A DNA stretch of 64,000 bases, taken from NCBI GenBank assembly GCA_020053105.1, contig JAGVNU010000042.1:15502-79501 (forward strand), read 5' to 3'. The notes under the pieces were generated by a model that was given only the letters and a program-made list of their open reading frames with translations, ran no database searches and was not told the DNA's origin. The DNA comes from Thermodesulfovibrionia bacterium (GTDB taxonomy: Bacteria; Nitrospirota; Thermodesulfovibrionia; UBA6902). Position numbers and translations under genes: made by a program. The first letter of the stretch is position 1. Each line of letters begins with the position of its first letter. This document shows positions 4,263 through 30,397 of this stretch, piece by piece.

Positions 4263-4387
4263 ATCGCAAGCACTAAATAATAAATAAATGCCAATTCATA
4301 ACGAGGGGGAAATTTGAAATACTGGAAAGTTTTGTAATTGGAATTTATTTGTTAAATGGGACTTGTGTGAATTATTTTTTTTTGTTT

Positions 4388-5305
4388 TCATTCTAATATC
4401 TTCAGTACGCTTATTGCGTTTCCTCTCATTTCCACTACGAGTAGTCTATCATTTTTATCAGCAATAATTCCTACCGGAGACTTAAATTTTTTTATCCTGT
4501 TGTTTTCGCAAATGACCCCGAGGAACCGCCCCAGGTCCGTAAATGCCTGTATCACTCCCATATAACTGTCGCTTATGAACACCCTGTTTTTCTTGCCCAG
4601 GGCCACCCCCTTAGGTCTGAACAGATGTCCCTGCAGTACCCCCCATGAACCAATAGACACGATATGTTTTCCGAACGGATCAAATTTCTGGACCCTGGTA
4701 TTAAGCACATCAACGATAAAGATTTCATTGTATTCATTTAATGTCATAATTCCAGGGTATCTGAATTCCCCGGAGGTCTCTCCGAATCCTCCCCACTCGA
4801 AATCATACGTGCCGTTTTGTTTGTACACCTTAATCTTATGGTTATTATTATCAGATACATAGAGGAAATTATTTAAGTTAGAGGCAGCAACATCGACTGG
4901 TTCAGAAGGCGCCTCCCCGTGGCCGGCCTTAACCGTAAACATGTATAAAAAATTGCCTTCGGAATCAAAAACCTGAATCCTGCTATTCCCGGTATCGGCA
5001 ATAAAAACTTTCCCTGAGTCAGATATATCAATTCCGAGGGGCAGCTTGAACTGTCCCTTTTCAGTCCCCTCGCTGCCAAAAGAGAATTTCCATCCCCCGT
5101 TATCGTTAACTACAATTATCCGGCTGTTAACTCCATCTACGAGGTATATGTTCCCCTTTGAATCCAGGGCGATATCACTTGGCTGATTTGCTCCAGGCTT
5201 GATGTCGAAGAGAAATTTGGTGTTGATGCATTCTATTGCAAATGAACTCGCTGGCAGGAAAAGAACAACAATAATTAATATTAATTGAACAAGAAAAGGT
5301 AGCAA
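4388..5305 (-). CDS. Secreted NHL-repeat beta-propeller protein
   Basis: 305-aa ORF with a signal peptide (LILIIVVLFLPASSFA). Repeated NHL-type blades, e.g. PSDIALDSKGNIYLVDGVNSRIIVV, PLGIDISDSGKVFIADTGNSRIQVF, YPGIMTLNEYNEIFIVDVLNTRVQKF, PKGVALGKKNRVFISDSYMGVIQAF. Confidence 0.85.
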   Translation of the reverse strand: MLPFLVQLILIIVVLFLPASSFAIECINTKFLFDIKPGANQPSDIALDSKGNIYLVDGVNSRIIVVNDNGGWKFSFGSEGTEKGQFKLPLGIDISDSGKVFIADTGNSRIQVFDSEGNFLYMFTVKAGHGEAPSEPVDVAASNLNNFLYVSDNNNHKIKVYKQNGTYDFEWGGFGETSGEFRYPGIMTLNEYNEIFIVDVLNTRVQKFDPFGKHIVSIGSWGVLQGHLFRPKGVALGKKNRVFISDSYMGVIQAFTDLGRFLGVICENNRIKKFKSPVGIIADKNDRLLVVEMRGNAISVLKILE

Positions 5306-5345
5306 GGCGATTATTTTCAGTAATGTTTTTGTTTTATATTAACAT

Positions 5346-5386
5346 TCCCACAGAGATTTCCGAAATGTCAGGAAATCTCTGTGGGA
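5346..5386 (-). other. Perfect 16-bp stem / 9-nt loop hairpin between tri-haem cytochrome gene and NHL gene
   Basis: tcccacagagatttcc (5346-5361), loop gaaatgtca, ggaaatctctgtggga (5371-5386). No U-tract follows on either strand. Confidence 0.6.
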
Positions 5387-5403
5387 GAGAATTGCAAGAA
5401 AGA

Positions 5404-6234
5404 CTATTCTGAAAACAGGTTAGGGATGTAGAACTCTTCATATTTAGTCACCATCCCTTTAATGTTTAACTGCTCAAGGTCTATGATTCTGTTTGCTGAG
5501 AACCCCAAGGTTCTAAAATCAAGAATGCCATTTCTTGAGTGGCAAACTTTGCATTCATGTCCTTTAGCTTTAATATGCACATGGAATTTCTTTTTAACGT
5601 TATCTCTCTGCTCAGGAGTAAGTTTGTCCCTGACCTTTACATAATCCTGAGCCAAATCTGAATCCTGTATCTGAATCGCCGACTTGAATTTATCTCCGCT
5701 TCTGTAAAAGGGAGATATCTTGGAAAACTGGTCTTCAACCTCAACCAGGTTTCCGGACTCAGTATCATATGAAGTACCAAAAAATGGTCCCTTTGGATTT
5801 TCGTTCAAAGGGTTATACCACTTATAAATTACGCTCATTCCTGGTTGTTCTTCGATATGACATGTTTCGCATACGAAAAATTGTGTGTGCATGTTCAACA
5901 TTGCCCGTACTTTCTTATTTTTGCTGTGGGGGTAGTCGGAATGACATATGTAACAGACAGGGCGCATATTTTCAGGGAGTTGGGGATATTCGACAACATG
6001 ATGAAAATGCCTGTGCTTCTCGTATTCCTCCTGCTGCCTCACTTCATCGAGGATCGCTGATTTTTGAGATTCTTCGATCTTCTCCTTTATCGGTACTAAA
6101 ACAGCAGGGCCGTGAGGAGAAAAAGTGATCTGGTATATAACTGCTATCAATACTGAAAGCGTAATAATCTTAAAAATAAACCCGATTACATAAACTGATT
6201 TGGGATGTTCTAATCGCTTTGGTTCGCCTGGCAC
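5404..6234 (-). CDS. Membrane-anchored tri-haem c-type cytochrome
   Basis: 276-aa ORF with one N-terminal TM helix (VYVIGFIFKIITLSVLIAVIY). Motifs CYICH, CETCH, CKVCH. I do not recognise the family more precisely. Confidence 0.7.
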   Translation of the reverse strand: MPGEPKRLEHPKSVYVIGFIFKIITLSVLIAVIYQITFSPHGPAVLVPIKEKIEESQKSAILDEVRQQEEYEKHRHFHHVVEYPQLPENMRPVCYICHSDYPHSKNKKVRAMLNMHTQFFVCETCHIEEQPGMSVIYKWYNPLNENPKGPFFGTSYDTESGNLVEVEDQFSKISPFYRSGDKFKSAIQIQDSDLAQDYVKVRDKLTPEQRDNVKKKFHVHIKAKGHECKVCHSRNGILDFRTLGFSANRIIDLEQLNIKGMVTKYEEFYIPNLFSE

Positions 6235-6250
6235 TTTAAAGTCACCTCCT

Positions 6251-7129
6251 TTAGTTCGTGTCGTAGCCGTTTTCTCTTAAGATTTTTTTCATATATTCTC
6301 TTTCTTCCGGAAACTCTTTCAGATTGTAAACGTATTCCAGGAAGTGCTCTTCTATTTGATGTTCTCTGGTAATTCTTCCAGTCAGAAAAGACCACTGAAG
6401 AGGGAATCTGCCGGGGACCAGGTGTACATTTGACCAGTGCCAAAAGACAATAACTGTAATTGCCATGATCGCTTCATCGGCGTGCATCAACCTGGCCAGG
6501 TCCTGACCGAATCTGGGGTTAGGCCAGATAGTTGCCATTGTCTCGGGAAACAATAATGACGTTCCCGCTGATACCAGCACAAAGGTCCCCCATAAAATCG
6601 CAACGTAGTGAAGTTTCTGCTTGTACATGAATTTATACATCTTGGGACGTTGCTCCTCTTTCCCCAAGAAATATTTAATATCGTGGACCATATCATGAGC
6701 ATCCTTTATAAGGGGAATCTGTGTCCTGTTAATATTAAATTTTTTTGTCATGATTTTGTGGAGGGTCCCGCCGATAATTGTTATAAGGTGGTATACGCTT
6801 GCAATAACCATTAATGCTGCTGCTATTCTATGGATAAGTCGTGCCGTGTCCGGTCCGCCAAAAAGCTTCATCACGAGAGGCGCCCACCATAGGCTGGCGA
6901 AGTGTAAAGTCAGCCCAGTGGCTGCAAGGATGAGGAATGTTATAAATGTTAAAAAATGCTGGATAACTATATGATATGAGTAACGCGGGAGGTCTCCCAG
7001 CGGATCTGATTTTACATATTTATATATGTCTCTCGGGATATTTCCCACGCCTTCAACGTATGTATAGTATTCATCAGCCCCCGCCTCTTTGGAAGAAGCC
7101 GCGATATTTTCACTAGATGTTGACATCAT
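6251..7129 (-). CDS. Di-haem b-type cytochrome membrane subunit (FdnI/PhsC/CbcB-like)
   Basis: 292-aa ORF with multiple TM helices carrying conserved His (HIVIQHF, HRIAAALMV..YH, HADEAIMAITVIVFWHWSNVH). Lies immediately downstream of the multihaem gene 7174..8256. Paralogue of the partial gene at 1..655. Confidence 0.8.
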   Translation of the reverse strand: MMSTSSENIAASSKEAGADEYYTYVEGVGNIPRDIYKYVKSDPLGDLPRYSYHIVIQHFLTFITFLILAATGLTLHFASLWWAPLVMKLFGGPDTARLIHRIAAALMVIASVYHLITIIGGTLHKIMTKKFNINRTQIPLIKDAHDMVHDIKYFLGKEEQRPKMYKFMYKQKLHYVAILWGTFVLVSAGTSLLFPETMATIWPNPRFGQDLARLMHADEAIMAITVIVFWHWSNVHLVPGRFPLQWSFLTGRITREHQIEEHFLEYVYNLKEFPEEREYMKKILRENGYDTN

Positions 7130-7173
7130 CCCTCCTTATATATAGAGATATTCCTGTATTTCGTCTCATGATA

Positions 7174-8256
7174 TTATTTGGATTTCTTCCGCTTCGATTC
7201 TCCGCGCCAGGATGTTCCACGTACGATCTGCATGCTAATCCCGTCTTTTCTTCTGCCGTAGGATTCGAGCATTGCAAGGCCTATCAAGCTGAAAACTGAT
7301 CCATAAAATACAAATCCCAAAATAACATTCACAGAATATAAAAACGGTTTTTCATGCGGCCCGATTTCTGAATGCACATCAATTTGAGCAAACCTTTCAG
7401 TTACGTTTTCATGACACTGTTTGCACGTTTTTACAAGGTTTGCTTTATTCACTGTGGCGTGCGGTTCATCTTTCTTGTAAATGTCATGTATTGAGCTTGT
7501 GGCATGACAACTCACACAGTCGGCAGCTGTTTGCGATCCCAAGCCTATAGCTTTGCCATGGATTGACTCATTATAAGTTTTTACCGCCTCCATGCTTTCC
7601 CTGGAGACCTTCAGCTTTTTCATTAGCACAAGATCAGCATGGCAATTCTTGGCGCACAACTGGACAATTTCCTGAGGCGAGCGTGAGGTCTTGGACCGCA
7701 GGCGATGGGTTATATGTTTATAAGCTTGCGTAACGCCTTTTCTTTCATGACAATTCAAACAACGGCTTAAGGTCTCTTCAAAGGCGATCCTTTGTTCATC
7801 GACCCGTGTATAAATAGGATTAAGATGACAATATTTGCAATATGGTTTTGCCGCCTTTAATTCTGCAGAGTCATCGTCTTTGGAGCCGTGAACGCTCCTG
7901 TTATATACATCTATAATTTTCTTATGAGAAAAATTTTCATTCGAGAAGGGGGGCTTGATGTGACACTCGTTGGCACAATTGACTTCTTGTGTTACAGGAT
8001 CATGAGGAAGTTTATCTATATATGTGTGGCAGTCTCTGCAGGGGACGTTTCTGTGGACAGCATTAGCGTAAATATTTTCACTGACAAAATAACTCCTCTT
8101 ACGTCCCTTCTCATCAATCCGCCCGATCTGGCGATACTTATGACACATAAGGCAATTCTCTTTGTCTGCTGCATCAACACCGGGAGCCATAAAAGAGAAC
8201 AAAAGGAATATCGCAAGGAATAAAGTTTTACTAGTTAAAATTTTTATAAATTCCAA
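7174..8256 (-). CDS. Membrane-anchored multihaem c-type cytochrome (6 CxxCH + 2 CX3CH), Cbc-type
   Basis: 360-aa ORF with a signal peptide (LFLAIFLLFSFMAPGVDA). Motifs: CLMCH, CRDCH, CKYCH, CLNCH, CVSCH, CKQCH plus CANECH and CAKNCH. C-terminal TM helix (VILGFVFYGSVFSLIGLAML). Confidence 0.85.
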   Translation of the reverse strand: MEFIKILTSKTLFLAIFLLFSFMAPGVDAADKENCLMCHKYRQIGRIDEKGRKRSYFVSENIYANAVHRNVPCRDCHTYIDKLPHDPVTQEVNCANECHIKPPFSNENFSHKKIIDVYNRSVHGSKDDDSAELKAAKPYCKYCHLNPIYTRVDEQRIAFEETLSRCLNCHERKGVTQAYKHITHRLRSKTSRSPQEIVQLCAKNCHADLVLMKKLKVSRESMEAVKTYNESIHGKAIGLGSQTAADCVSCHATSSIHDIYKKDEPHATVNKANLVKTCKQCHENVTERFAQIDVHSEIGPHEKPFLYSVNVILGFVFYGSVFSLIGLAMLESYGRRKDGISMQIVRGTSWRGESKRKKSK

Positions 8257-8576: not shown

Positions 8577-10097
8577 ATGTTTAATAGTCTGAAGTTTAAA
8601 ATAAGTATTACTGCCTTCCTTATTATATCAGTCATAATGACTTTATCCACATGGCGGGACATTAAAGAAACTGAACGGAAGCTTCTTGAAGGTCAGAAGG
8701 AAAAAGTAGTATTGCTTTCCGAAAGGATATCACACAGCATAATGGTGCTTATGTTGAAGAACAGGTGGCAGGATTTACAAGCTTTTTTAGAAAGTATGAC
8801 CAATGATTCCCGTGAGCTGAGGTCCATTAGAATATCTGAGCCGGATAAAGGAGTTATAGTAGCATCTTCAACCAGGCAGGATATAGGCGGACATATTAAT
8901 AGACGGGATAGAGATATGTTTAATAAGAAGGCAATAAATGATGCTTATCTGACGGAAAAAAATGCTCAGGGTTTTGCTTCGAAACTCACTGTTATCCAGA
9001 ATCAGACGATCTGTCACCGGTGCCACGGTTCTGAAAAAGAGATATTAGGGGTGATGGGAGTGGATATTTCCCTGGATGAAGTATATAAGTCCATAAATCA
9101 ATTTCAAAAAGAACGGTTATTGGATGCCGCGATGGGATTCTTGATGATCGGTGGAGGATTTATGCTCGTTATAGGGTTGTTAATAGACAGACCTATAAAG
9201 AAAATGATCCGGATTATACGTAGAATTGAAGGCGGGGACTTGTCTGCCAGGATGGAGGAAGATAAGAAAGATGAGTTCGGTCTTATGGCAAAAAGTTTTA
9301 ATAGTATGCTTGAATCGCTTGATGCGGCTAAACAGGAAATAGAAATGTGCCATTCAGAACAAATGCAGAGGGCGGCAAAACTGGCATCTCTTGGAGAGAT
9401 TATCTCCGGAATTGCTCATGAAATAAAAAATCCACTTACTGGAATAAGTTGTGCTGTGCAGGTTTTTCAGTCGGAAATGAGTGAAGATGATAGCAGGAAA
9501 GCTGTCACCACTGAAATATTGAATCACATAAAAAGACTTGACCGGACAGTTAAGGATTTGCTGAATTATGCTAAACCCAAGCCCCCTAATTTCTTGGCTC
9601 TTAATATTAATGATGCATTGAATAAGGCTGTTTTTTTCGTTTATCCTGAGGCCAAAAAACAGAATGTATCTATAGATACCATTGTTGAAGGAGAAATCCC
9701 GGATATTATGATGGATCCCGACCAGATGCAGCAGGTCTTCTTAAATTTAATGATAAACGCAGTGCAGGCCATGCCGGATGGAGGAAAGCTTAAGATAACA
9801 ACGTTAAAATCCGACATAGATAAGGAAGAGCATATTGAAATTATTAAATTACTGCACGGAGAAAAGGCGGTTATCGTTAGATTTGAAGATACGGGCAAAG
9901 GGATAGAAGGCGAATATCTGAATAGTATATTTGATCCATTCTTTACAAAAAAATCAAAAGGAACAGGGCTTGGTTTAGCAATAAGCAGGAGAATTATACA
10001 TGAGCATGGTGGCGAGATTGATGTGGAAAGTAAAGTCGGAAAAGGGAGTGTATTCTCTATATACTTGCCGTTAATGCAAAAAAGAGAAGGCGTGTAA
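8577..10097 (+). CDS. Sensor histidine kinase with a periplasmic CxxCH (c-haem) sensor domain, HAMP, HisKA and HATPase domains
   Basis: 506-aa ORF. TM1 (ISITAFLIISVIMTL), then a roughly 150-aa periplasmic segment containing QTICHRCHGSEKEILGVMGVDISL, which resembles the Tll0287/DUF3365-type haem-c sensor as I recall it. TM2, HAMP, H-box SGIAHEIKNPLTGI, G-boxes GTGLGLAISRRI. Confidence 0.85.
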   Translation: MFNSLKFKISITAFLIISVIMTLSTWRDIKETERKLLEGQKEKVVLLSERISHSIMVLMLKNRWQDLQAFLESMTNDSRELRSIRISEPDKGVIVASSTRQDIGGHINRRDRDMFNKKAINDAYLTEKNAQGFASKLTVIQNQTICHRCHGSEKEILGVMGVDISLDEVYKSINQFQKERLLDAAMGFLMIGGGFMLVIGLLIDRPIKKMIRIIRRIEGGDLSARMEEDKKDEFGLMAKSFNSMLESLDAAKQEIEMCHSEQMQRAAKLASLGEIISGIAHEIKNPLTGISCAVQVFQSEMSEDDSRKAVTTEILNHIKRLDRTVKDLLNYAKPKPPNFLALNINDALNKAVFFVYPEAKKQNVSIDTIVEGEIPDIMMDPDQMQQVFLNLMINAVQAMPDGGKLKITTLKSDIDKEEHIEIIKLLHGEKAVIVRFEDTGKGIEGEYLNSIFDPFFTKKSKGTGLGLAISRRIIHEHGGEIDVESKVGKGSVFSIYLPLMQKREGV

Positions 10098-10138: not shown

Positions 10139-11554
10139 TTGTGCAGAATATTAATTGTTCCGTTATGTTATGGAGGGTTATTGGCTCAAAGCAAGATACT
10201 TGTCATTGATGATGAGGAATTTATAACCAGGAGTCTTAAGCAGCATCTGGAAAAAGAGGAATATGAGGTAGCTACCGCTGCTACCGGGGAAGAGGGAATT
10301 GAGATGTTCAAGGCTGAACCCCCCGATATTATTATCCTAGATCTAAATATGCCCGGGATGGGTGGTATTGAGACACTGAAGACCATCAGAAACCTGAGCA
10401 GTGATGTTGTTGTAATTATAATAACTGCCCATGGTGACATAGAAACCGCAGTTTCGGCTATAAAATTAGGGGCTTATGACTTTGTGGAGAAACCTTTTGA
10501 ACTGGACAGAATTTCTGTTCTCATCAGGAAGGCTTCTGAAACGGTACATCTAAAAAGAGAAGTTACTTTCCTCAGAGAGGAAAAATTCGACACTTACAGC
10601 TTCAATAATATTATAGGGAATTCTCAAATAATGAAGGATGTTATCAATCTTGCAAAAAAAGTAGCTGCAAGTGATGCTAATACGATTCTCATTCAGGGTG
10701 AGAGCGGGACCGGCAAAAGTCTGCTCGCAAGGGCAATTCATTATCATAGTGCGAGGGCCTCGGGACCATTTGTCGAAATAACCTGTACGGCGATACCTGA
10801 GGCGCTGATAGAGAGTGAGCTTTTCGGCCATGAAAGAGGTTCATTTACAGATGCTAAAGTATCCAAAAAAGGGCTATTTGAGGTTGCCAGCGGAGGAACT
10901 ATATATCTGGATGAAATAGGAGATATTAAATTGTCAACACAGGCCAAGCTATTGAGGGCCCTTGAAGAAAAGACATTTAAAAGGGTTGGCGGACTTAAAG
11001 ATATTAAAGTTAATGTACGGATTGTCGCAACAACGAACAAAAAAAACCTGGAAGGGGCAGTAAGAGAGGGGTCTTTCAGGGCAGACCTTTATTACAGGCT
11101 AAAGGTATTTCCGATCTTCCTTTCACCCTTGAGAGAACGAAGGGAAGATATTATCCCTCTCGCAATGCATCACATTAATAGATTCAATAAGGAATTCAAA
11201 AAAAATGTTAAGATGATCTCTCCTGACTCCGAAAAGCTGTTGTTGAATTACCCCTGGTTTGGTAATGCCCGGGAACTTAGGAACATTGTTGAGAGAATAT
11301 GCATTCTGGAAGATACCGATATAATTTATCCCAGACATCTTCCCTCTGAAATAGTTGAGTATGTTAATTCGGAAGCGGAGGAAGGCGGTTCAATAGATTT
11401 TCCCAGCGAGGGCCTTTCTCTGAGAAATGTGGAAAAGGATCTTATTGTCCAGGCCCTCAAGAAGGCCGACAATAACCAGACAAAGGCTGCCAAGTTGCTC
11501 AGTATTTCACGAGATGCATTGAGATATAAGATGCAGAAGTTCAATTTGCTTTGA
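10139..11554 (+). CDS. Sigma54-dependent response regulator (REC + AAA+ + Fis-type HTH; NtrC family)
   Basis: 471-aa ORF. REC domain (ILVIDDEE...DLNMPGMGG), Walker A GESGTGKS, ESELFGHERGSFTDA (GAFTGA-region), RADLYYRL, C-terminal HTH NQTKAAKLLSISRDALRYKMQKF. Start is uncertain (TTG at 10139; no good SD). Confidence 0.9.
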   Translation: MCRILIVPLCYGGLLAQSKILVIDDEEFITRSLKQHLEKEEYEVATAATGEEGIEMFKAEPPDIIILDLNMPGMGGIETLKTIRNLSSDVVVIIITAHGDIETAVSAIKLGAYDFVEKPFELDRISVLIRKASETVHLKREVTFLREEKFDTYSFNNIIGNSQIMKDVINLAKKVAASDANTILIQGESGTGKSLLARAIHYHSARASGPFVEITCTAIPEALIESELFGHERGSFTDAKVSKKGLFEVASGGTIYLDEIGDIKLSTQAKLLRALEEKTFKRVGGLKDIKVNVRIVATTNKKNLEGAVREGSFRADLYYRLKVFPIFLSPLRERREDIIPLAMHHINRFNKEFKKNVKMISPDSEKLLLNYPWFGNARELRNIVERICILEDTDIIYPRHLPSEIVEYVNSEAEEGGSIDFPSEGLSLRNVEKDLIVQALKKADNNQTKAAKLLSISRDALRYKMQKFNLL

Positions 11555-11859: not shown

Positions 11860-11875
11860 TGGCATATGAATTGCT
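11860..11875 (+). promoter_or_regulatory. Sigma54 -24/-12 promoter (TGGCAT-N5-TTGCT) upstream of first OmcS-like gene
   Basis: tggcatatgaattgct. GG at 11861-62 and GC at 11873-74 give the canonical 12-nt offset. About 115 nt upstream of the ATG at 11990, next to a sigma54 activator gene. Confidence 0.75.
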
Positions 11876-11989: not shown

Positions 11990-12985
11990 ATGAGAAAAAT
12001 AATTATGGCAGTATTGCTGGCGTTTCTTTCAGTCACGCTGGTAAGTGTGTCTGCTTATGCAGCCATTAGTGGCACATGTAGTGACTGCCACACAATGCAC
12101 AACAGCCAGGACGGGGCTGCGGTTGACAGTAGTGGTACGAATGATAATCTTACAAAATTCGATTGTATCGGTTGTCATAGCGGAAATATTGCTGCTGCAC
12201 CCAATGTGACCGGCGAAGGAGCGACTATGACAGCGGGAGGTACATTTAAGAGCAGCATAGTCGGAAGCACTTCCAGCCGGACACATAATGTTCGTGACAT
12301 ATCTTGGACTGTTGATGAAGTAGCTCTTCTTAACACGACACCGGGTTCGGTGGCTGGAGGTTTTACAGAGCCTGCCGGCGCTACTGAATTGACCTGTGCA
12401 GGAACAACTGGCTGCCACGGGCAGGCCACAGGCGGATTTTCGGGCTTTCATCACAATGCTTATCCGAATGCATACCGGTTTCTCAGAATCAATGACGGCG
12501 CTAGCTACACGGATGTAAATGGAGTGGGTTCAGCCGACTGGGAGGTAGGCGGAGCTACAACAACAAATCACAACATATATGACGGTGATGGAACCAACAG
12601 CATAAGCACATTTTGCGCAATGTGTCATGGTGGTTTCCATGGAGGCAGCAATACCGCCAGTTCAAGTCCCTTTCAGAGACACCCGACTGACGAAGAAGCT
12701 TTAATTGATAACGTTGACGGAGCAGGAATCACAATAACATCTGCTACAATTAACGAGACTCCATTCGGTTTCACGAGCGCTCAAATTGCCTTAGGGATGG
12801 TGACTACCGATGTTACTACGGGATCAGCCTACACTGCTCCTAATGGATTAGTTACCTGCCTGTCTTGCCACAGGGCACATGGTTCAGCACAGAGTGACCT
12901 TCTGAGGTTCGACTATAGTACTATGAATGCCGGCAACAGTGTAGACAACGGAGGTTGTGAGACCTGTCATACAGCTCAAAGGTAG
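11990..12985 (+). CDS. OmcS-family multihaem (5 CxxCH + CX5CH) cytochrome, paralogue 1
   Basis: ORF track 11939..12985. I prefer the ATG at 11990 (AAGGAGG 9 nt upstream). Signal peptide ...SVSAYA, then [18 protein letters not shown]. Further motifs: [49 protein letters not shown]-terminal CETCHTAQR. These blocks match, in the same order, the G. sulfurreducens OmcS sequence as I remember it (CEGCHTMHNS ... LRHP ... NCLSCHRAHASG ... CNKCHAKD). Confidence 0.8.
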   Translation: MRKIIMAVLLAFLSVTLVSVSAYAAISGTCSDCHTMHNSQDGAAVDSSGTNDNLTKFDCIGCHSGNIAAAPNVTGEGATMTAGGTFKSSIVGSTSSRTHNVRDISWTVDEVALLNTTPGSVAGGFTEPAGATELTCAGTTGCHGQATGGFSGFHHNAYPNAYRFLRINDGASYTDVNGVGSADWEVGGATTTNHNIYDGDGTNSISTFCAMCHGGFHGGSNTASSSPFQRHPTDEEALIDNVDGAGITITSATINETPFGFTSAQIALGMVTTDVTTGSAYTAPNGLVTCLSCHRAHGSAQSDLLRFDYSTMNAGNSVDNGGCETCHTAQR

Positions 12986-12996
12986 AGATGAAGGGT

Positions 12997-13030
12997 AAAA
13001 AGGAGCCGGTATCTTGCCGGCTCCTTTTTT
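12997..13030 (+). terminator. Rho-independent terminator after OmcS-like gene 1
   Basis: Stem ggagccgg (13002-09) / ccggctcc (13017-24), 7-nt loop, A-run before and tttttt (13025-30) after. Confidence 0.8.
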
Positions 13031-13100
13031 AAGGTTCATCAAAAAATGTAATATGATGGGGAATTAAGAAGGTTCTGAAAATCAATTCTTGGAAATTACT

Positions 13101-14141
13101 ATGGGCCCTCAAATAAAAATAATAATAAGTCTGATAGGCATTTTACTTGCTTTTCTACCGGTACAGGTTTCATCAAAGGTAGCAGGACCATGTGTGAATT
13201 GTCATACTATGCATAATTCACAGGATGGAGCAAATGTCAGCGGGGCAGGCCCTAATCAATATTTGATGAACGTCGGAGCAAATATATGTGTAGCCTGTCA
13301 TTCATCAGATGTTGCAAATGAGACAATCAAGGATATAGGCGGCGGCACCAGAATACCGATTGTCTATAATACTTCCGGTTATCCGACAAATCCGCTTGCA
13401 GGTGGAAATTTCTATTATGTTTCCACAGGCAGCCCAAAGGTAGATAAAGACGCTTACGGGCATAATGTATATGGCATTTCAGCTCAGGATGCAAATATCT
13501 CTACTGTCGAAGGGGCTCCGGGCAACAAGAGTTGCGGCGGTGTTGCCAATGTATGCCATCGTACCCTTGCTGTAGAGCCGCAATCAAACAACTTTGATAA
13601 GGGCGGCTGTCAGGGGTGCCATGTTAATGTGTTTCATCATACCGATAATAATGAATACCGCTTTCTGAGTGGTCATGAAGGAACAAATTATTATGTTGAG
13701 GGAGTTGAAGATGCAAACTGGGAACAGACCCCGACACTGGCTAATCACAATGTATATAAAGGATATGACGGACCTGTCGGAGATAGTGTGACTTTAGAGA
13801 CTACAAAAAGTATAAGCTCCTATTGCGGTGGATGCCATTACTATTTTCATAGAGAAACTGCAACGGGCGGACCATCAAGCCCGTGGTTAAGGCATCCAAC
13901 TGACATTAAATTGCCTGAGACCGGTGAGTATGCGGCGTACAACCCGCCCACCGAATATAATAACCAGACGCCTGTTGCTTATACGAATCCATCAAGCCCG
14001 ACAAGGGCCACAGCCATTGTCATGTGTTTGTCATGTCATAGACCGCATGGTTCTGATCAGCCTGACATGCTGAGGTGGGATTATAGTACAAGCGAATTAG
14101 GCGGTTCAGGCGGGTGTTTAAACTGTCACACGACAAAATAG
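13101..14141 (+). CDS. OmcS-family multihaem (6 CxxCH + CX6CH) cytochrome, paralogue 2
   Basis: ORF track 13089..14141; ATG at 13101 preferred. Signal peptide, then [18 protein letters not shown]. Further motifs: [77 protein letters not shown] at the C-terminus. Confidence 0.8.
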   Translation: MGPQIKIIISLIGILLAFLPVQVSSKVAGPCVNCHTMHNSQDGANVSGAGPNQYLMNVGANICVACHSSDVANETIKDIGGGTRIPIVYNTSGYPTNPLAGGNFYYVSTGSPKVDKDAYGHNVYGISAQDANISTVEGAPGNKSCGGVANVCHRTLAVEPQSNNFDKGGCQGCHVNVFHHTDNNEYRFLSGHEGTNYYVEGVEDANWEQTPTLANHNVYKGYDGPVGDSVTLETTKSISSYCGGCHYYFHRETATGGPSSPWLRHPTDIKLPETGEYAAYNPPTEYNNQTPVAYTNPSSPTRATAIVMCLSCHRPHGSDQPDMLRWDYSTSELGGSGGCLNCHTTK

Positions 14142-14251
14142 GTCGCTGATTGTTATGAGATCTTTGTATATGCCCGGATGATGCAAAAAGGTCAGATTAA
14201 TCAAGGAATAGCTAAAAGAGCGATTATTTGTTAGATATAGAGGAGCAAACA

Positions 14252-15370
14252 ATGGAAGACAAATATTTCAACGATAAAAGGATCCTGATATTTTGTAGTG
14301 CAGTAATAATGTCACTATTTCTGACAGGCATCCCTTTTTCACTTTTTGCCGCAATTACCGGGGAATGCGCCAACTGCCACACTATGCACAACAGTCAGGA
14401 TGCATCGGTCATGGCAGATTACGGGGCATCCGGCAAGCCATGGAAAGGCAGTGGTCCAAATGATGCGCTGACTCGTGGTGATTGTCTCGGATGTCACGGC
14501 ATTGGTACTTCCAAAGTTGTAACCTTAGGCACAAGTGAGATACCTCAGGTTTATCATACTGATGCAACCGGTGATCTGGCAGGCGGCAACTTTGCTTATA
14601 TACTTGGTACAAAGGGTAGTGGCGCATCTGATGCTAAGGGACATAATATAGTAGAAATTGGTGATGCTGAAAGTACATTATCAGAGCCTCCGGGGCACCA
14701 TTCACCCAGCAGCATAAGAGTTAATATCACCTGTTCAGGAATAACCGGCTGTCATGGTAAACGAGCTTCAGGGGAAATCTTGAAAGGGGTCCATCATAAA
14801 AATGTTGATGGTGCGCTTGATACCTCTGACCAGGTTTATAACAGTTACAGATTTCTTTACGGGGTCAAGGGCTTTGAAAATACGACAGGTTCTTATAAAT
14901 GGCAGAACTTTGATAAAGATAATCATAATGAGTATTTTGGTGCAACTACCCCCATGAGTTACACCGGTTGTAATATCTGCCATACTCCGCAGGGGATCCA
15001 GCCTACTAATCATACAATAAGCGGTTTCTGTGGAACATGTCATCGAGAATTTCACACGGTTGAGGGTATTGGCGGCGACACCAGTACTCCGTTCCAGAGA
15101 CATCCAACGGATGTGATCTTGCCTGGCAGCGGTGAGTACGCAAGTTACAATGGGGTCGGCAATCAATATAGTGTACAGGCCCCGGTAGCCAGAACAGCGA
15201 ATCCTATTATTTCCATTAGCGATACGGTCATTCCTGGAACAGATGTAGTCATGTGTCTCTCCTGCCATATGGCACACGCGTCCAATTATCCTGACATGCT
15301 GAGGTGGGATTACAGTGCGATAGAATTAGGTGGTTCAGGAGGTTGCCTTATATGCCACACATCAAAATAA
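14252..15370 (+). CDS. OmcS-family multihaem (6 CxxCH + CX5CH) cytochrome, paralogue 3
   Basis: ORF track 14228..15370; ATG at 14252 follows GAGGAG. Signal ...SLFA, then [17 protein letters not shown]. Further motifs: [91 protein letters not shown]. Confidence 0.8.
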
Positions 15371-15425: not shown

Positions 15426-15700
15426 TTCAGTATATGGCCAGCGATATTTTCTGTAGTTTGTTAACGCAATGATCTCTCCATGATTGTGATATTTCCTGAA
15501 ATATATTAATAAAACTATAAGTACATTGAATTACATAACAACTTATTGCTATTATTTAAAACTTGATCTGATAGTTCGTTGTAAAATCACAATATTTTTT
15601 GCGACGCTTAACATAAGAATAAAGCAGGGGAAATCAGTCGCCACCTTAATGATTTGGTGCTTATTTGCAAAGCGCAGCTGAATCGCATTTTGTACCCATA

Positions 15701-16672
15701 ATGGAAAAAAAAACCAATCAAGCGAGAATCCTGTTACAGAGGACAACTTATTTTCTTTCTTCTGTTCTAGTTGTGCTGTCGTTGGTCCCTTCAGCTCTGG
15801 AGTCCCAGCAGCTTGGTTCTGCCATTATTACCTATCAGGAGAGCATCACTACTGATGAAGAGGACAGAAATCTGGTATTGCCCTCGTTTATTTATGCAGA
15901 TTTATTAACAGGTGAAGTTTATGTTATAGATGGTAAGGGCAGAATTATTATATTTTCACCCGAGCTGTTTCCGTTAATTACACTCGGCAAAAGGGACGGA
16001 GTTGAAGCGCCTCAGGGGTTGACTGTGGATGCTGAAGGTAATCTTTATATTGCCCAGGCCGCATCAAAAAGCAATCCGAAAAACAGGATTTCGGTTTACA
16101 ATGCATGCCTGAAGTGGGAAAGGGATATATATTTGGAGGATTTTGAGGGGAGCGGTTCATTTGCCCCTTATCGCCTTGCAATAGACAAGAAGGGGAATCT
16201 GTATGTGGCGGCAAGCCATTTCCCCGGTGTCGTGTATGTAGATACAACGGGTCGTTTTATTGATATTATTGCACCTGAGGAGGATGGGAAAAAAATAAAA
16301 TTAAATAGTGTCGTTATTGACAAGGCAGGGAAAATATATGTTGTAAGTGAGGATCAGAGTCATATTTATGTTTATGATGAAAATAGAAAATTTATTAATA
16401 AATTCGGTGAAAAAGGCGGAAGCACGGGTAAACTCAGCCGTCCCAAGGCCATTGGGGTGGATGACCGAACAGGCAGAAGCTTTGTCGTGGATTATATGCG
16501 CCACACGGTAACTTCATATGATAAGGAAGGTAAGTACCTTTTTGAATTTGGTGGGCTCGGGTGGAGCGAAGGATGGTTCCAGCACCCGGTCAATTTAGCG
16601 ATTGACAATAAAGGCAGGATCTTTGTGGCAGATTTATTTAATCAGCGGGTACAGGTGTTTAATTCCTGGTAA
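15701..16672 (+). CDS. Secreted NHL-repeat beta-propeller protein
   Basis: ORF track 15665..16672; ATG at 15701 preferred. Hydrophobic signal (YFLSSVLVVLSLVPSALE). NHL-type blades, e.g. PQGLTVDAEGNLYIAQ, PYRLAIDKKGNLYVA, PKAIGVDDRTGRSFVVDYMRHTVTSYD, PVNLAIDNKGRIFVADLFNQRVQVF. Confidence 0.85.
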   Translation: MEKKTNQARILLQRTTYFLSSVLVVLSLVPSALESQQLGSAIITYQESITTDEEDRNLVLPSFIYADLLTGEVYVIDGKGRIIIFSPELFPLITLGKRDGVEAPQGLTVDAEGNLYIAQAASKSNPKNRISVYNACLKWERDIYLEDFEGSGSFAPYRLAIDKKGNLYVAASHFPGVVYVDTTGRFIDIIAPEEDGKKIKLNSVVIDKAGKIYVVSEDQSHIYVYDENRKFINKFGEKGGSTGKLSRPKAIGVDDRTGRSFVVDYMRHTVTSYDKEGKYLFEFGGLGWSEGWFQHPVNLAIDNKGRIFVADLFNQRVQVFNSW

Positions 16673-16853: not shown

Positions 16854-18431
16854 ATGAAAAATACTAAATATATCTTAAGACTCCGGCTTTTCATGATATT
16901 TTTTGCAACTGTCATTTTTCCCCCGGGTTGTATGACTCCGGAAGAGCAGGCAAGTCACCCTGAGATGTTTAAGTGTCAGGTGTCCCTTTTTTTTAACGGC
17001 CCTGACATGGCTGCCAGTGATATCACCTTTGAGCTGGCGGGAGTCAATATAGTAGCAGAAGATGGGACTTCCAGAGAAGTTGTGCGCGCTCCTCTCCGTA
17101 TTAATTCCAATGATATAAAAGGCCGTCAAATATTTCTGGGTGAAAAATCTTTACCTGAAGGCAAGTACGAAAAGCTTCAGTTTGTCATAAAGGAAGCGTC
17201 TATCAGTAAAAAAGGGAAGACCTCACATCTAGCGTTGCCGCCCGGGGGAGTGGAGTTAGGCATTGATGTTTCCTTAAGAAGAAATCAGAGTACCACATTA
17301 TTTCTGAACTGGAATGCTGATGCATCTGTCAGTGAGGACTACCTATTCAACCCTGTATTTACGGTAAAGAGTCAGGGCGCTGAATTAAGTTCTCTGCTTA
17401 TTTACGTAACTAATGAGGATTCGGACTCCGTCTCGGTGATTAACAGGCAGGCCGGTGAGATAGCCGCGACAGTATTGGTGGGGAAAAAGCCGAGGGGGAT
17501 TGCGACTTCAATTACGGGAGAGCGCCTTAAGGTTTATGTTGTGAATTCAGGCTCAAACAGTATCTCAGTAATCGACCCTACAACGAATAAAATAGAGAAT
17601 GAGATCCCTATCAGGTTCGGCAGGCAGCCGGAAGCTATCGCTGTAGCAGGCATATCCGCTGATAAGGAGCTGATATTTGTCGCCAATTACGGCTCCAATT
17701 CAGTTTCCCTGGTGGACGCATCCACTTATCAGGAGCTGGAGAAGATAGATGTAGGGCGAGGCCCAATAGCAATTGCAACAGACCCACCGGTGGAGGATCT
17801 TATGGGATCGAGGTTTCTCAGCTTTGATGATATTAACTTATTAAGAAGTTACAGGGAAAGGTTTTTTAATGTTTATGTAGTCAATCAAAATTCCAACAGC
17901 GTTTCCGTGTTGAGGATTGACGCTGTGGCTAAGAAGAGCGTGGAAGTTATTAATCTAAGCGTGGAATGGAGACCCGTCGCGCTAAGCGTGGATTATCAAA
18001 GGGGCAAGGTTTATATAGCCAATTATGATTCTGACAAACTGTCTGTTATAGATATCCCCAAAACAGTAAAGGGCATTACGTCAGATGCTGTCAGCACCAT
18101 TAATAATGTGGGATTTTCTATAATAGGTGTCATCGCTGACCCGGCCTTCGACAGGCTGTATTTATTAAAAGAACGTACCGGGGAGGTAGTGATTGTCAGA
18201 CCTTTTACAGACAACCTTGATACCCTCAGGACAGTGATGCCTCCGGTAATGGGGACTATTGCCGTGGGGAGTTCGCCAAGAGCACTCGTTTTAGATCCTG
18301 AAGCCAGAAAGCTGTATGTAGTTAACAGCGGATCAGACAATATTTCAGTTATAGATAAAACCACAATAAATGAAGAGCAGATCATCCCTGTAGGCAAGAA
18401 GCCTTACGGTATAACATTTTTCCAGAAATGA
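16854..18431 (+). CDS. Lipoprotein with N-terminal DUF4382-like domain and YVTN-type beta-propeller
   Basis: 525-aa ORF with a lipobox-like FPPGC. The N-terminal roughly 170 aa resemble the DUF4382 pattern (LPEGKYEKLQFVI...LALPPGGVELGIDV...LFLNWNADASV). Then repeated YVTN-like blades (IYVTNEDSDSVSVINRQAGEI, VYVVNSGSNSISVIDPTTNKI, IFVANYGSNSVSLVDASTYQ, VYVVNQNSNSVSVL, VYIANYDSDKLSVID, LYVVNSGSDNISVIDKTT). Confidence 0.8.
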   Translation: MKNTKYILRLRLFMIFFATVIFPPGCMTPEEQASHPEMFKCQVSLFFNGPDMAASDITFELAGVNIVAEDGTSREVVRAPLRINSNDIKGRQIFLGEKSLPEGKYEKLQFVIKEASISKKGKTSHLALPPGGVELGIDVSLRRNQSTTLFLNWNADASVSEDYLFNPVFTVKSQGAELSSLLIYVTNEDSDSVSVINRQAGEIAATVLVGKKPRGIATSITGERLKVYVVNSGSNSISVIDPTTNKIENEIPIRFGRQPEAIAVAGISADKELIFVANYGSNSVSLVDASTYQELEKIDVGRGPIAIATDPPVEDLMGSRFLSFDDINLLRSYRERFFNVYVVNQNSNSVSVLRIDAVAKKSVEVINLSVEWRPVALSVDYQRGKVYIANYDSDKLSVIDIPKTVKGITSDAVSTINNVGFSIIGVIADPAFDRLYLLKERTGEVVIVRPFTDNLDTLRTVMPPVMGTIAVGSSPRALVLDPEARKLYVVNSGSDNISVIDKTTINEEQIIPVGKKPYGITFFQK

Positions 18432-18540: not shown

Positions 18541-20829
18541 ATGAGGATTATATTATGCAATATTTCAGTCCTTATAATGTCCGTATTTTTATTAAACTCT
18601 TTTTCTCACTCACAGGGATTGAGCGGATATTTTGATATAAATAAAAATATCACTAAAGAATATGAGGATGGTGAAAGGACATCATCTTCCGAAGCATTAA
18701 ACCGTAATTTATATCTTAAGTTGCAGGAACCGATTACACCGGTGCTTTCTTATCAGTTTAACTTACGGACAAATTTTCTGGATTCAGAGACAACGGACTC
18801 CCTGGACGTGACTTCGACAAGGTACACCAGGTCGCTTGAGCCGGCGCTGGATCTGATTCTCGGGAACCCGGGGTATAATTTTAGTGCAGGCGCACGCCGC
18901 AGGGAACAATGGACCGCAGCGCATATGAATAATGACAACAGAAAGACAAATGAATATTATTATTCCAGATTCAGCCTGTCCCCCGAGGCATTGCCTTCTT
19001 TGACACTTCAGATAGACAAACAGAAGAACTATGATTATCTTTCTCCGAGGGCCGTGGATGACAGCAACACGGTATATTCCATCAACTCAGCGTATGATTT
19101 GCCGCCCGGAGATGTGAAGTTCAGATATACGGTCAATTATTCATATACTATAAACCAGACCCCTTTAAAGCTTAACAATAAAACTGTAATTGATAATTTT
19201 AACACCACGTATAACATTGGATATTCCAGCCGCTTCTGGCAAAATAAAGCCGACTACTCCATAGGCTATCAGGGGAATTATTCAAGGAGCAAGAGTGAGC
19301 AGTTTGTTACTCAAACGGGCATTGTCCTGAATGAGAGGGTCCCTTTTGCTGGGCTTTATATATTTGACGATATACCTGTTGATCCCACTACCGGGGCCTT
19401 AAATACTGAAAACAATCTCATAAATAATGATGTTACTACACCGATAACAAGCATAAACATCGGCCCAATCAGCCCCGCTACAACCCATATAAATCATAAT
19501 ATAGGCATCTGGGTTTCACAGGAAAATTCTGTAGACCGGTTATATATTTATGTTGATAGAGACGTAAGCGGCGATATAAATCTGGGAAACGTCAGCAACT
19601 GGAAGGTTTATAAGAGCAATTCAAATACAGCAGTAACAACCTGGACAGAGGTGGCCATAAACCAGGTGACGATTTCTATTAATACCCTTGATGGCATATT
19701 CCGCTATGAGCTAAAATTTTTGACCGAGCAAAATGCCGCCTATTTTAAGGCCGTTAACCTGGCGACTGTTAACTCCAGCAATGTAGGACCGACCGATCCG
19801 GTATATGTGACGGAGATTGAGGCCCTCGGCAATGATCTGGCGGATGAGGAAAAACTCGTTGACGCATCTAATACTTTTTCACAGCAACTAAGTTTAAATA
19901 CCAGTTTCAGGCCCACAAGCAAGCTGACCTTCGCACTTTATTATTCTATAGACAGGTCGGACCAGAACATGGTTTCAGTTGTAAATTCTGTAGGAGGCGT
20001 TTTCGAAAATATCTTCAGTGATTCCTTCGGGGACGATAAATGGGATTTCACAAGTAATGTAACAAGGGGCTACAGCGCGTCTTCTACCTGGCTGACGCAC
20101 AGGTTCCTTACCACCTCATTCCGTGTACAACGGAATGAATCCTTTGACAATATAGAAGAGACAGACTTTAATTCAAATTCCTACAGTCTGTCTTTTTTCA
20201 CTGAGCCGCTTCCGACACTTAATGCCAATTTATCATTAATCAGAAGTGACAATTTCAGTTTCGGTGATAAGGCCTCTGCGAATGATTCTATTCTGTTAAG
20301 TGTAGGTTCCAGACTATACAGGGACCTGAACATGATCACGGATGCAGTTTATACCAGGGCATACTCATTTGCGAGTGAGACCACTTCTACAACCCAGCAG
20401 ATAAACGGGACACTGGACGCCCTTCTTACCCGGAAATTGTCAGGGACCTTTACTTATCATATCAGCCGGACCTTGTCTGACGGCACGCCTTCAGATTTAA
20501 AGGATGGGTCTGTTTTTATTACTTACCGGCCGGGGAAGCTGATCAATTTCTCCGGCAATTTTAAAATAACAGATTCAGATGGGGAAACATCAATCGCAGA
20601 GGGAATGCTGATGGACTGGCTTCCTCTGCCTGCTATCAGATTAAATGCAAACTATCAGCACAGTGATTCAGAGCCGGGACCTGTAAAGACGGACACTATT
20701 AACGGATATGTAATATGGTATGTAACAAAGTTTGCAGATGTCCGCTTTATAAACAGTTACTCGAAACAGGTTGATAATAAAGAGACGGAAAATTACAGTA
20801 TGAGCGCAAGCTTAAATTGCAGATTCTGA
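18541..20829 (+). CDS. Large outer-membrane beta-barrel protein with an inserted jelly-roll (discoidin/F5-8C-like) domain
   Basis: 762-aa ORF with a signal peptide (VLIMSVFLLNSFSHSQG). Long runs of alternating-hydrophobicity strands (FTYHISRT, VFITYRPG, INFSGNFKIT, VIWYVTKFADVRFINSY). C-terminal OMP beta-signal ending ...YSMSASLNCRF. The central roughly 160 aa (nt about 19350-19830) end in VYVTEIEALG, typical of discoidin-like domains. Confidence 0.7.
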   Translation: MRIILCNISVLIMSVFLLNSFSHSQGLSGYFDINKNITKEYEDGERTSSSEALNRNLYLKLQEPITPVLSYQFNLRTNFLDSETTDSLDVTSTRYTRSLEPALDLILGNPGYNFSAGARRREQWTAAHMNNDNRKTNEYYYSRFSLSPEALPSLTLQIDKQKNYDYLSPRAVDDSNTVYSINSAYDLPPGDVKFRYTVNYSYTINQTPLKLNNKTVIDNFNTTYNIGYSSRFWQNKADYSIGYQGNYSRSKSEQFVTQTGIVLNERVPFAGLYIFDDIPVDPTTGALNTENNLINNDVTTPITSINIGPISPATTHINHNIGIWVSQENSVDRLYIYVDRDVSGDINLGNVSNWKVYKSNSNTAVTTWTEVAINQVTISINTLDGIFRYELKFLTEQNAAYFKAVNLATVNSSNVGPTDPVYVTEIEALGNDLADEEKLVDASNTFSQQLSLNTSFRPTSKLTFALYYSIDRSDQNMVSVVNSVGGVFENIFSDSFGDDKWDFTSNVTRGYSASSTWLTHRFLTTSFRVQRNESFDNIEETDFNSNSYSLSFFTEPLPTLNANLSLIRSDNFSFGDKASANDSILLSVGSRLYRDLNMITDAVYTRAYSFASETTSTTQQINGTLDALLTRKLSGTFTYHISRTLSDGTPSDLKDGSVFITYRPGKLINFSGNFKITDSDGETSIAEGMLMDWLPLPAIRLNANYQHSDSEPGPVKTDTINGYVIWYVTKFADVRFINSYSKQVDNKETENYSMSASLNCRF

Positions 20830-20872: not shown

Positions 20873-21487
20873 ATGGGAATGAACATGATTGACAGGGTGA
20901 CCAAGGGAAAATGCGGCCGGTTTCAGATATATGTATTAACGGTCCTTTGTTTTTTTATATTTTTTACAGGCGGGTGCAGCACCACCTCGAAGAAATATAC
21001 CCGCCCTGACTTCGACATAAACTCGATTAACACCATTGCGGTGCTTCCCCTTGAGAACTTCACTTCAGACAATTACGCGGACGAAAAGATCAGAAGTAAA
21101 ATAAGCATTGAACTCTTATCACGGGACCTTAACATTATTGAGCCCGGCGAAATCATTTCGGTCTTAAGGGAACTGAAGATTAAATCCGTTGATTCCATTC
21201 GAAATAAGGACATGGTGAGCATAGGAAGCATGTTAAATGTTGAGGCTGTTCTCACCGGGTCGGTGGAAGCATTCGGGATAAGCAGAGGAATTGCGGCGTC
21301 ATATCCCGAGGTGTCTGTCCATCTGATGATGTTTGACACGGTCACAGGGAATATTGTCTGGTCGGCCTGGCATACAAGCGGCGGCGCAAGTTTCTGGACG
21401 AGGCATTTCGGCGCAGAAGGCAGCACCCTCGATAACGTATCTGAAAGGGTAATTAAAGAGGCATTTGATGCTCTATATAGTCGTTAA
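20873..21487 (+). CDS. Lipoprotein with a CsgG/LpoB/TolB-N-like alpha/beta domain (family shared with next two genes)
   Basis: 204-aa ORF with lipobox FFTGGC. Domain starts NTIAVLPLENFTSDNYADEKIR. C-terminal block HTSGGASFWTRHFGAEGSTLDNVSERVIKEAFDALY is paralogous to the 21573..22160 product. Confidence 0.7.
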   Translation: MGMNMIDRVTKGKCGRFQIYVLTVLCFFIFFTGGCSTTSKKYTRPDFDINSINTIAVLPLENFTSDNYADEKIRSKISIELLSRDLNIIEPGEIISVLRELKIKSVDSIRNKDMVSIGSMLNVEAVLTGSVEAFGISRGIAASYPEVSVHLMMFDTVTGNIVWSAWHTSGGASFWTRHFGAEGSTLDNVSERVIKEAFDALYSR

Positions 21488-21572: not shown

Positions 21573-22160
21573 ATGGCTATGCGTTTATTGAAAAAATATG
21601 TACCGGCATTAATGGGTTTAATCCTGTTTATTATTTCGGGATGCCGAGGCGATATCCCGGTTTATCATATCAGTGAGGACATAGATTTCAGTTATTACAA
21701 GAGAGTAGCGGTTGTTCCTTTTGATAATCTGACAAATGACAAATATGCCGATGAGATCGTGAGGCAGGTGGTTGTGAGCGAGCTTTTGGCATCAGGCCTT
21801 GTTGACGTTGTGTTTCCAGGTGAAGTCAAGAGCGCCATTGCCGAGCTGGGCATTAAATCCGTCTCTGCACTGACGGCAAACCAAATCAAGTCGCTGTGTA
21901 ATACACTTAAGGTGGAAGCGCTCATTGTCGGGGCGGTTGAAGAATACGGCGAAGTGAGGATGGGAAATATCTCAGCGCCCCAGGTTACGTTGAGCTTAAT
22001 GATGGCGGATGCGAACACCGGGTCTATCGTGTGGTCCATTACGAAAACACGCGGAGGCGCAGGTTTTATGGCACGGCATTTTGGAGCAAGGCATGAAACA
22101 GTCAGTGAAACTGTGTTGTTGCTTGTAAGAGAATCAATCAGGACTCTATATAAGCAGTAA
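21573..22160 (+). CDS. Lipoprotein, paralogue of 20873..21487
   Basis: 195-aa ORF with lipobox FIISGC. Motifs KRVAVVPFDNLTNDKYADEIVR and KTRGGAGFMARHFGARHETVSETVLLLVRESIRTLY. Confidence 0.7.
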   Translation: MAMRLLKKYVPALMGLILFIISGCRGDIPVYHISEDIDFSYYKRVAVVPFDNLTNDKYADEIVRQVVVSELLASGLVDVVFPGEVKSAIAELGIKSVSALTANQIKSLCNTLKVEALIVGAVEEYGEVRMGNISAPQVTLSLMMADANTGSIVWSITKTRGGAGFMARHFGARHETVSETVLLLVRESIRTLYKQ

Positions 22161-30344: not shown

Positions 30345-30397
30345 TGAGAGGGAGAGAATCTACAGGGATGAGAAGACGGCATAACGAAGAGTACATA

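Follow-up and report, generated by a model that had tools for sequence, protein, structure and literature searches.

Background

In the filament of the multi-haem cytochrome OmcS (GSU2504; PDB entries 6EF8 and 6NEF), each monomer supplies its His-16 as a ligand to haem V of its neighbour (PMC13319180; the residue is not named in Filman et al. 2019), and in the tetrahaem nanowires OmcE, PcECN and AvECN the interfacial haem is ligated by one His per subunit (PMC12954529, PMC9473688). Geobacter sulfurreducens carries four OmcS paralogues, three of them within the omcS operon; GSU2501 is possibly ancestral, and genes of its type are found with the secretion block in every case, also when omcS is missing (PMC12977616). 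The eight-gene block GSU2500-2493 has recently been linked to the maturation and secretion of OmcS nanowires, in passages of PMC12977616 that cite Shen et al. 2025 (Cell Chem Biol 32:239). For Geobacter alone is such a block known to be needed for secreting and assembling the cytochrome (Shen et al. 2025, as cited in PMC12977616). Here we describe four cytochrome genes, A to D, in a 64,000-nucleotide stretch of DNA (hereafter the window) from a Thermodesulfovibrionia bacterium (assembly GCA_020053105.1, contig JAGVNU010000042.1, positions 15,502 to 79,501), and we compare them and the genes around them with the Geobacter system.

From their sequences, we assign the products of A to D to the secreted multi-haem c-type cytochromes of the OmcS superfamily. 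We find homology to OmcS, column-by-column equivalence of the sites that give and receive the link between OmcS subunits, extreme conservation of both of these motifs, and the context of an assembly cluster. From these observations, and by analogy with OmcS, we infer cross-subunit haem ligation and filament formation along the following lines. The four proteins would be exported and their signal peptides removed, and an N-terminal donor block (CHTMHNSQ) would bind haem 1. The second His of this block (the TMH His, homologous to OmcS His16) would complete the bis-His coordination of the CLSCH haem, the haem-5 equivalent, of the neighbouring subunit, and this cross-subunit His-Fe bond would lock the subunits head-to-tail into a haem wire, as in OmcS. 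Because homology, motif conservation and an osc-type gene cluster together make filament formation by at least one paralogue plausible, we lean towards the view that one or more of the four polymerise in this OmcS-like way, while it appears doubtful that all four do so.

Results and discussion

Four divergent cytochromes with an identical donor block

The four genes were identified from the list of open reading frames (ORFs) and their translations, and all lie on the forward strand: A at 11990-12985, with six haem sites, and B at 13089-14141, C at 14228-15370 and D at 29253-30344, with seven each. The ORFs are 348-380 residues long, signal peptide included. The mechanical ORF of A runs from a GTG at 11939, and its likely start is the ATG at 11990, which lies behind a good AAGGAGG ribosome-binding site and is the start used in the initial annotation of this DNA. 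For C, a database gene call (P0001, 372 residues) begins at the ATG at 14252, against 14228 for the ORF. As that annotation reported, an identical CHTMHNSQ follows shortly after a signal-peptide-like segment in each of the four, with a basic n-region, then a hydrophobic stretch and then a small-residue site preceding the block. The likely cleavage points, assigned by eye and with Leu as the -3 residue in C and D, are SAYA/AISGTC in A, QVSS/KVAGPC in B, SLFA/AITGEC in C and ELPA/VITGQC in D (the slash marks the cut), which places the first Cys about 5 residues past the likely cleavage point.

The donor block spans 12077-12109 in A, 13191-13223 in B, 14366-14398 in C and 29346-29378 in D (all +), with the codon of the TMH His at 12098-12100, 13212-13214, 14387-14389 and 29367-29369, respectively. 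Pairwise BLASTP identity among the four proteins is 31-38%, except for the pair C and D (58%), and 73 of the 440 columns of their alignment are invariant. CHTMHNSQ is the longest invariant run (8 columns), and the next longest, CLSCH and RHPTD, cover 5 columns each. The CLSCH run belongs to the acceptor block, which reads CLSCHRAH in A (12857-12880), CLSCHRPH in B (14025-14048), CLSCHMAH in C (15254-15277) and CLSCHTAH in D (30222-30245; all +) and aligns in each case with the OmcS haem-5 site, C328-H335.

A six-frame scan of the window found no CxxCHTMH beyond A to D. The sole other CxxCHxMH is CNSCHSMH (29032-29055, +) at the C-terminus of the 16-haem protein encoded at 27784-29127. Since this motif sits in a doubled-CXXCH repeat protein, CxxCHxxH alone represents a generic multi-haem module, and on sequence grounds we take the full CHTMHNSQ block to be the signature specific to the OmcS superfamily.

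Homology to OmcS

Sequence comparison identifies A to D as true but distant homologues of OmcS. In phmmer searches of the PDB, C matched OmcS (6ef8/6nef) with E=1.2e-7, pairing C residues 45-362 with OmcS 7-347, and D matched it with E=2.8e-6, and for neither protein was there another significant match; OmcS was the only match for A (E=0.058), and B alone gave no OmcS match. The membership of B follows from its blastp matches to the Geobacter paralogues and from its identity of 34-38% (BLASTP) to A, C and D. A profile of 88 members of the clade matched OmcS with E=3.2e-17, and the next PDB matches were NrfA-type cytochromes at E values of about 4e-3, over the C-terminal part only. When the clade was compared with 66 OmcS-clade proteins by HHalign, the probability was 99.85% (E=6e-31, 302 aligned columns), and the donor block was paired with CeGCHTMHNS and CLSCHxAHA with CLSCHRAHA, residue for residue. 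The blastp comparisons of A to D with the Geobacter OmcS, OmcT and GSU2501-like proteins gave E values from 2.6e-4 (B against OmcS) to 5.8e-16 (C against OmcS); against the GSU2501-like protein they were 3.6e-11 for A and 7e-8 for B. Pfam and NCBIfam returned generic multi-haem matches only (doubled CXXCH, cytochrome c7, MtrC-like).

The Geobacter OmcS orthologue is cut after AFA, and its mature N-terminus reads FHSGGVAECEGCHTMHNS. In the numbering of PDB chain 6ef8_A, the aligned residues are E8, C9, C12, H13 and H16, and the donor block of A aligns with OmcS C9-S18. The OmcS N-terminus and the role of His16, as given in the initial annotation, are borne out by the orthologue sequence and by the ligation of haem V of the neighbouring monomer (PMC13319180). 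The TMH His of A to D falls in the same column as His16 in phmmer, profile, multiple and HHalign alignments, so that the proposed homology of this residue to the OmcS inter-subunit ligand holds column for column. In the OmcS-clade alignment the equivalent of His16 (H41) does not vary either, and 99% of 150 family representatives have it, a set composed of the four window proteins and the 146 top representatives of a profile search. In an alignment of seven sequences (the Geobacter OmcS orthologue, OmcT, the GSU2501-like protein and A to D), the invariant His residues, in mature OmcS numbering, are H13, H16, H51, H110, H243, H247, H257, H332, H335 and the His of the last CxxCH.

Haem sites and the choice of ligand

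OmcS sensu stricto carries six canonical CxxCH sites over a mature length of about 407 residues, a pattern that none of A to D shows. Five CxxCH sites and CAGTTGCH make up the six sites of A, and the seven sites of the others consist of six CxxCH with CGGVANVCH in B, CSGITGCH in C or CAGIAGCH in D. The atypical site is the third one in each protein and has the form CX5CH in A (12395-12418), C (14732-14755) and D (29706-29729) and CX6CH in B (13533-13559; all +). Among the 150 representatives, the third site is CX5CH in 104, canonical (spacing of 2) in 40, CX6CH in 2, and CX11 or CX13 in 2. The extra CxxCH is CQGCH in B (13608-13622, +), after the haem-3 site, and CNICH in C (14969-14983, +) and D (29937-29951, +). 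The seventh site thus occupies one position in B and another in C and D, which suggests that a haem was gained or lost twice independently within the clade.

If the TMH His were instead an intramolecular distal ligand, for instance to haem 2 in the manner of doubled-CXXCH proteins, A to D would be ordinary monomeric multi-haem cytochromes. The doubled-CXXCH models TIGR01905 and PF09699 do match the N-terminal motif of D and the haem-5/6 pair of A to D, and the spacing between the haem-1 and haem-2 motifs (29-39 residues) is similar to that between haem 5 and haem 6 (about 30-33). Counting His residues does not decide the matter. All 14 His of A are family-conserved and six haems require 12 ligands, so that an intersubunit ligand is not forced and the count is compatible with an intramolecular role; an argument by His counting that the CLSCH haem has no intramolecular ligand failed for the same reason. 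OmcS, OmcT and the GSU2501-like protein likewise have 14 His in common. However, in the sole solved homologue the equivalent His goes to haem 5 of the neighbour, the assignment of ligands in doubled-CXXCH modules is itself by inference only, and no other blocks of the family are as well conserved as the donor and the acceptor, here accompanied by a full nanowire-assembly cluster. We consider a purely intramolecular role improbable.

Distribution of the family and the reach of the motif

When 1.84 billion representatives were searched exhaustively with a profile, 1,538 clusters matched at E<=1e-3, and at E<=1e-30 there were 516. CxxCH[T/S/V]MH is found in 146 of the 150 diverse family members, and the remaining four are fragments that lack the N-terminus, with the Met of TMH as the first residue in two of them; a CLSCHxxH-type acceptor is found in 149 of the 150. 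The two most conserved 8-mers of the set are CHTMHNSQ (0.944) and CLSCHRAH (0.894). The conservation that the initial annotation noted among the four copies is thus a property of the whole family. A scan of species-representative genomes detected at least 531 encoding stretches in Nitrospirota, Thermodesulfobacteriota and other lineages, and the nearest species representatives are Nitrospiraceae bacterium UBA6902 (83%) and Nitrospirota MAG082 (82%). By their sequences, A to D fall in a distinct, shorter clade that is common in metagenome-assembled genomes (MAGs) of Nitrospirota and Thermodesulfobacteriota. No specific account of OmcS-like proteins from Nitrospirota emerged from our literature searches.

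Several motif-bearing genes in one place are likewise a frequent pattern. In 79 species-representative loci (±10 kb), two motif-bearing ORFs occur in 30, four in three and six in one. The six-copy locus (L017, 8721-17600) is in an unclassified MAG (isolate Zod_Metabat.896) and consists of six tandem paralogues in about 9 kb. Since such arrays are common, four genes in one locus are not exceptional. The earlier contrast between four genes here and omcS and omcT in Geobacter was mistaken, given the four paralogues of G. sulfurreducens, three of them in the omcS operon.

A homologue with 39% identity is assigned to a MAG of the archaeal Candidatus Methanoperedens, which could reflect either horizontal transfer or a binning error.

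The breadth of this conservation can be read in two ways. On the one hand, the donor and acceptor motifs are the best conserved parts of the family across more than 1,500 clusters, which speaks for cross-subunit haem ligation, and with it polymerisation, being ancestral to the OmcS superfamily and widespread in it, well beyond Geobacter. On the other hand, the motif may be a hallmark of the superfamily as a whole, retained for reasons other than homopolymerisation in at least some copies, with one paralogue as the major wire subunit and the other copies acting as non-filamentous carriers or in accessory roles (primer, cap, anchor or periplasmic charging partner). The near-universal presence of the motif, in which the only four members lacking it are N-truncated, fits this explanation, as do its presence in OmcT and the GSU2501-like protein when a wire is known for OmcS only, and the occurrence of GSU2501-type genes with the secretion block in the absence of omcS (PMC12977616), which is compatible with an accessory or ancestral role. 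A to D also diverge at the level of 31-38% identity, and neither the number of haems nor the position of the extra one is the same in all of them. However, that no OmcT or GSU2501 wires have been observed is no evidence that none exist, as expression may be poor, and A to D retain every conserved haem Cys and His, donor and acceptor motifs included. The retention of both motifs in all four is as expected if each copy can give and receive the link. We regard the hallmark explanation as possible, if on the unlikely side. Because the motif is universal in the superfamily, including paralogues with no known filament, it cannot show that each copy polymerises. The step from motif to polymerisation that the initial annotation took is only partly supported and, for every one of the four copies, not justified: it gains from homology, the acceptor motif and the assembly cluster, and loses from this universality.

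An osc-type assembly cluster

The cytochrome genes are part of a cluster of about 23 kb that comprises a histidine kinase and a response regulator, A-B-C, a block of companion genes, D and an 8-site cytochrome. The sensor histidine kinase (8577-10097, +) and the sigma-54-dependent response regulator (10139-11554, +) were identified by Pfam and by blastp against their counterparts in the Geobacter omcS locus (E=1.6e-35 and E=2e-86, respectively), and the pair lies directly upstream of the cytochromes, as it does in Geobacter. The companion block, assigned by Pfam matches, collinearity and pairwise homology, runs on the forward strand through an NHL propeller (15665-16672), a YncE/lactonase propeller (16854-18431), a 762-residue protein (18541-20829), two LpoB/GNA1162-like lipoproteins (20873-21487 and 21573-22160), a 613-residue protein (22285-24126), a SurA-like peptidyl-prolyl isomerase (PPIase; 24155-25816), a 26-haem cytochrome (25827-27803) and the 16-haem cytochrome (27784-29127). 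The window is collinear with the omcS locus of Geobacter and with a locus of Geotalea daltonii, and every counterpart is significant by blastp. Between the 26-haem protein and a 657-residue protein of G. daltonii, identity is 36.6% over 640 residues, and 26 CxxCH are present in both. Companion genes also flank many of the other fetched loci. The osc (OmcS-companion) cluster reportedly includes a prolyl-isomerase chaperone, channel-like components and a beta-propeller protein, and we conclude from the gene content, in which propellers, lipoproteins, a PPIase and a 26-haem cytochrome accompany a large channel-like protein, that the locus is predicted to encode an osc-type OmcS assembly cluster.

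The gaps between A, B and C are only 86-103 nucleotides, and a terminator scan found none between the three genes and a single match inside B. These short gaps and the lack of a convincing terminator indicate that A, B and C are probably co-transcribed. A candidate sigma-54 -24/-12 element, TGGCATATGAATTGCT (TGGCAT-N5-TTGCT), lies upstream of A (11860-11875, +), and another, AGGCATTATTATTGCA (AGGCAT-N5-TTGCA), with two mismatches, lies upstream of D (29190-29205, +). Both are proposed from position only, and sigma-54-type matches are not enriched in the window (29 against a shuffle mean of 32.5). Their placement upstream of A and D would fit the sigma-54 activator encoded at 10139-11554.

Probable co-transcription of A, B and C, together with a donor block that is identical and an acceptor block that is nearly identical in the four proteins, would also be in line with co-assembly of the paralogues into heteropolymeric wires through common donor and acceptor modules. 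However, the OmcS interface is large, about 1900 Å2 (PMC9473688), the paralogues are only 31-38% identical outside the motifs, and no natural heteropolymeric cytochrome wire was found described in the literature searched. Such mixed assembly is therefore highly improbable in our estimate.

Directly after D, and overlapping its end by 22 nucleotides in the mechanical ORF, is a gene for a 470-residue cytochrome (30323-31735, +) with 8 sites, seven CxxCH and one CSDASCH (CX4CH). There is a loose likeness between its first motif, CGHCHEQHSS, and the donor block. We rejected it as a fifth paralogue because HHalign to the clade gave only 56% probability over 40 columns.

Genes for haem supply and cytochrome maturation adjoin the cluster on the reverse strand (33778-36870) and encode a porphobilinogen deaminase (33778-34716), a glutamyl-tRNA reductase (34697-36016) and a CcsA-type cytochrome c assembly protein (36043-36870). 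The last of these, the CcsA-like gene, may have a bearing on the atypical CXnCH site. A second set of electron-transfer genes lies upstream, also on the reverse strand (659-8256), and comprises three multi-haem cytochromes (659-1717, 1968-4262 and 7174-8256), an NHL-repeat protein (4388-5305) and a cytochrome b561/DUF4405 membrane protein (6251-7129).

Predicted fold and the weight of the evidence

The AlphaFold2 model of C (m94239240f196) has a predicted local distance difference test score (pLDDT) of 77.9 and a predicted template modelling score of 0.78. With this model, Foldseek returned 6ef8_A as the sole match at E<=0.001 (probability 0.97). In both monomer models, that of C and that of the OmcS orthologue P0121 (ma09ad87b9e96), the mature chain is least confidently predicted in its N-terminal haem-1/donor segment, with pLDDT of 55-63 for residues 31-80 of C and below 50 for residues 19-49 of the orthologue. 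This low confidence is compatible with a segment that becomes ordered only against a neighbouring subunit, and is no proof of it. The last 22 residues of the C model, which include the final haem motif, also have pLDDT below 50.

Several observations weigh against OmcS-like polymerisation of A to D. The superposition of the C model on 6ef8_A is loose, with template modelling (TM) scores of 0.38/0.35 and a root-mean-square deviation of 11.6 Å. The control model of P0121 reached TM 0.86/0.92 on the same chain, indicating that the low score of C is no general failure of modelling without haem. It reflects either real divergence or a poorer model, and the architecture of C may differ substantially from that of OmcS. 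The haem number differs as well, and the conserved His residues outside the motifs are a partly different set: OmcS has no counterpart of the invariant HH pair and of the HN His found in the clade, and the equivalent of OmcS His63 is missing from A and B. No filament, nor any other structure, of this clade has been solved, and for the superfamily the PDB searches with A, C and the clade profile brought up OmcS only. Finally, the donor motif is carried by OmcT and the GSU2501-like protein, with no known wire for either. The name OmcS paralogues, used in the initial annotation, is sound as to homology and loose as a label, in view of an identity of about 25-28% to OmcS, 6-7 haem sites that include CX5-6CH, and the TM score of 0.38.

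What is mildly new in this locus is the set of 6-7 haem sites, the CXnCH site, the small size of the proteins and the Nitrospirota-like host with a complete osc-type cluster. That the short clade builds nanowires of a new architecture, with six or seven haems per subunit, an atypical haem at CX5-13CH, and distinct or mixed wires, is a speculative extension that we think fairly unlikely. If it were true, the several paralogues encoded together would equip a single cell either with wires that differ in their properties or with one of mixed composition, in Nitrospirota, a phylum without demonstrated cytochrome nanowires. The window offers a complete and intact example, with a regulator, four subunit candidates and an assembly block from an uncultured Nitrospirota-like organism, and it bears on which OmcS-like proteins form wires, on whether subunits with seven haems or a CX5CH site do so, and on whether arrays of paralogues make different or mixed wires. 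For annotation, a note of caution follows: the motif identifies the superfamily and not a proven nanowire subunit.

Relation to known systems

The tetrahaem nanowire proteins OmcE, PcECN and AvECN are similar to the arrangement proposed here in the principle of the interfacial haem, but they have no detectable relationship to A to D in sequence or fold and are missing from the PDB matches obtained by sequence, profile and Foldseek searches.

Closer in organisation are the OmcS paralogues OmcT (GSU2503), GSU2501 and OmcJ (GSU0701), which have no known filament. The Geobacter OmcT and GSU2501-like proteins carry ECEGCHTMHNS, as A to D carry CHTMHNS, and in both systems several divergent paralogues surround one assembly cluster. 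Among the Geobacter paralogues, the GSU2501-type protein is the best-scoring blastp match of A, B and D. The Geobacter paralogues are canonical hexahaem proteins of about 430 residues, whereas A to D fall short of that length and contain 6 or 7 haem sites.

The companion block shares the gene order of the osc cluster (GSU2500-GSU2493), with propellers, a protein of about 720-760 residues, lipoproteins, a PPIase, the 26-haem cytochrome and a further multi-haem cytochrome. It differs in that D, the fourth OmcS-like gene, and the 8-site cytochrome come after the block, and in that two short lipoprotein genes and a gene for a 613-residue protein are found where G. daltonii has proteins of 188 and 372 residues. 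The host also differs, the window being from a Nitrospirota-like MAG and not from the Desulfuromonadia.

Compared with OmcS itself, for which the filament is demonstrated, the window proteins are about 60-100 residues shorter, at an identity of about 25-28%. OmcS is hexahaem and they have 6 or 7 haem sites, their haem-3 site is CX5-6CH where that of OmcS is CSSCH (CSSCHDPH), and about 5 residues separate the cleavage site from the first Cys, against 8 in OmcS. The likeness consists of secreted multi-haem c-type cytochromes, as predicted for A to D, with homology over nearly the full length, an N-terminal CxxCHTMHNS with the His16 equivalent, a CLSCHxAH haem-5 site, the GHN, CxxCHxxxH and RHP histidines in common, and the same types of regulator and assembly genes on either side.

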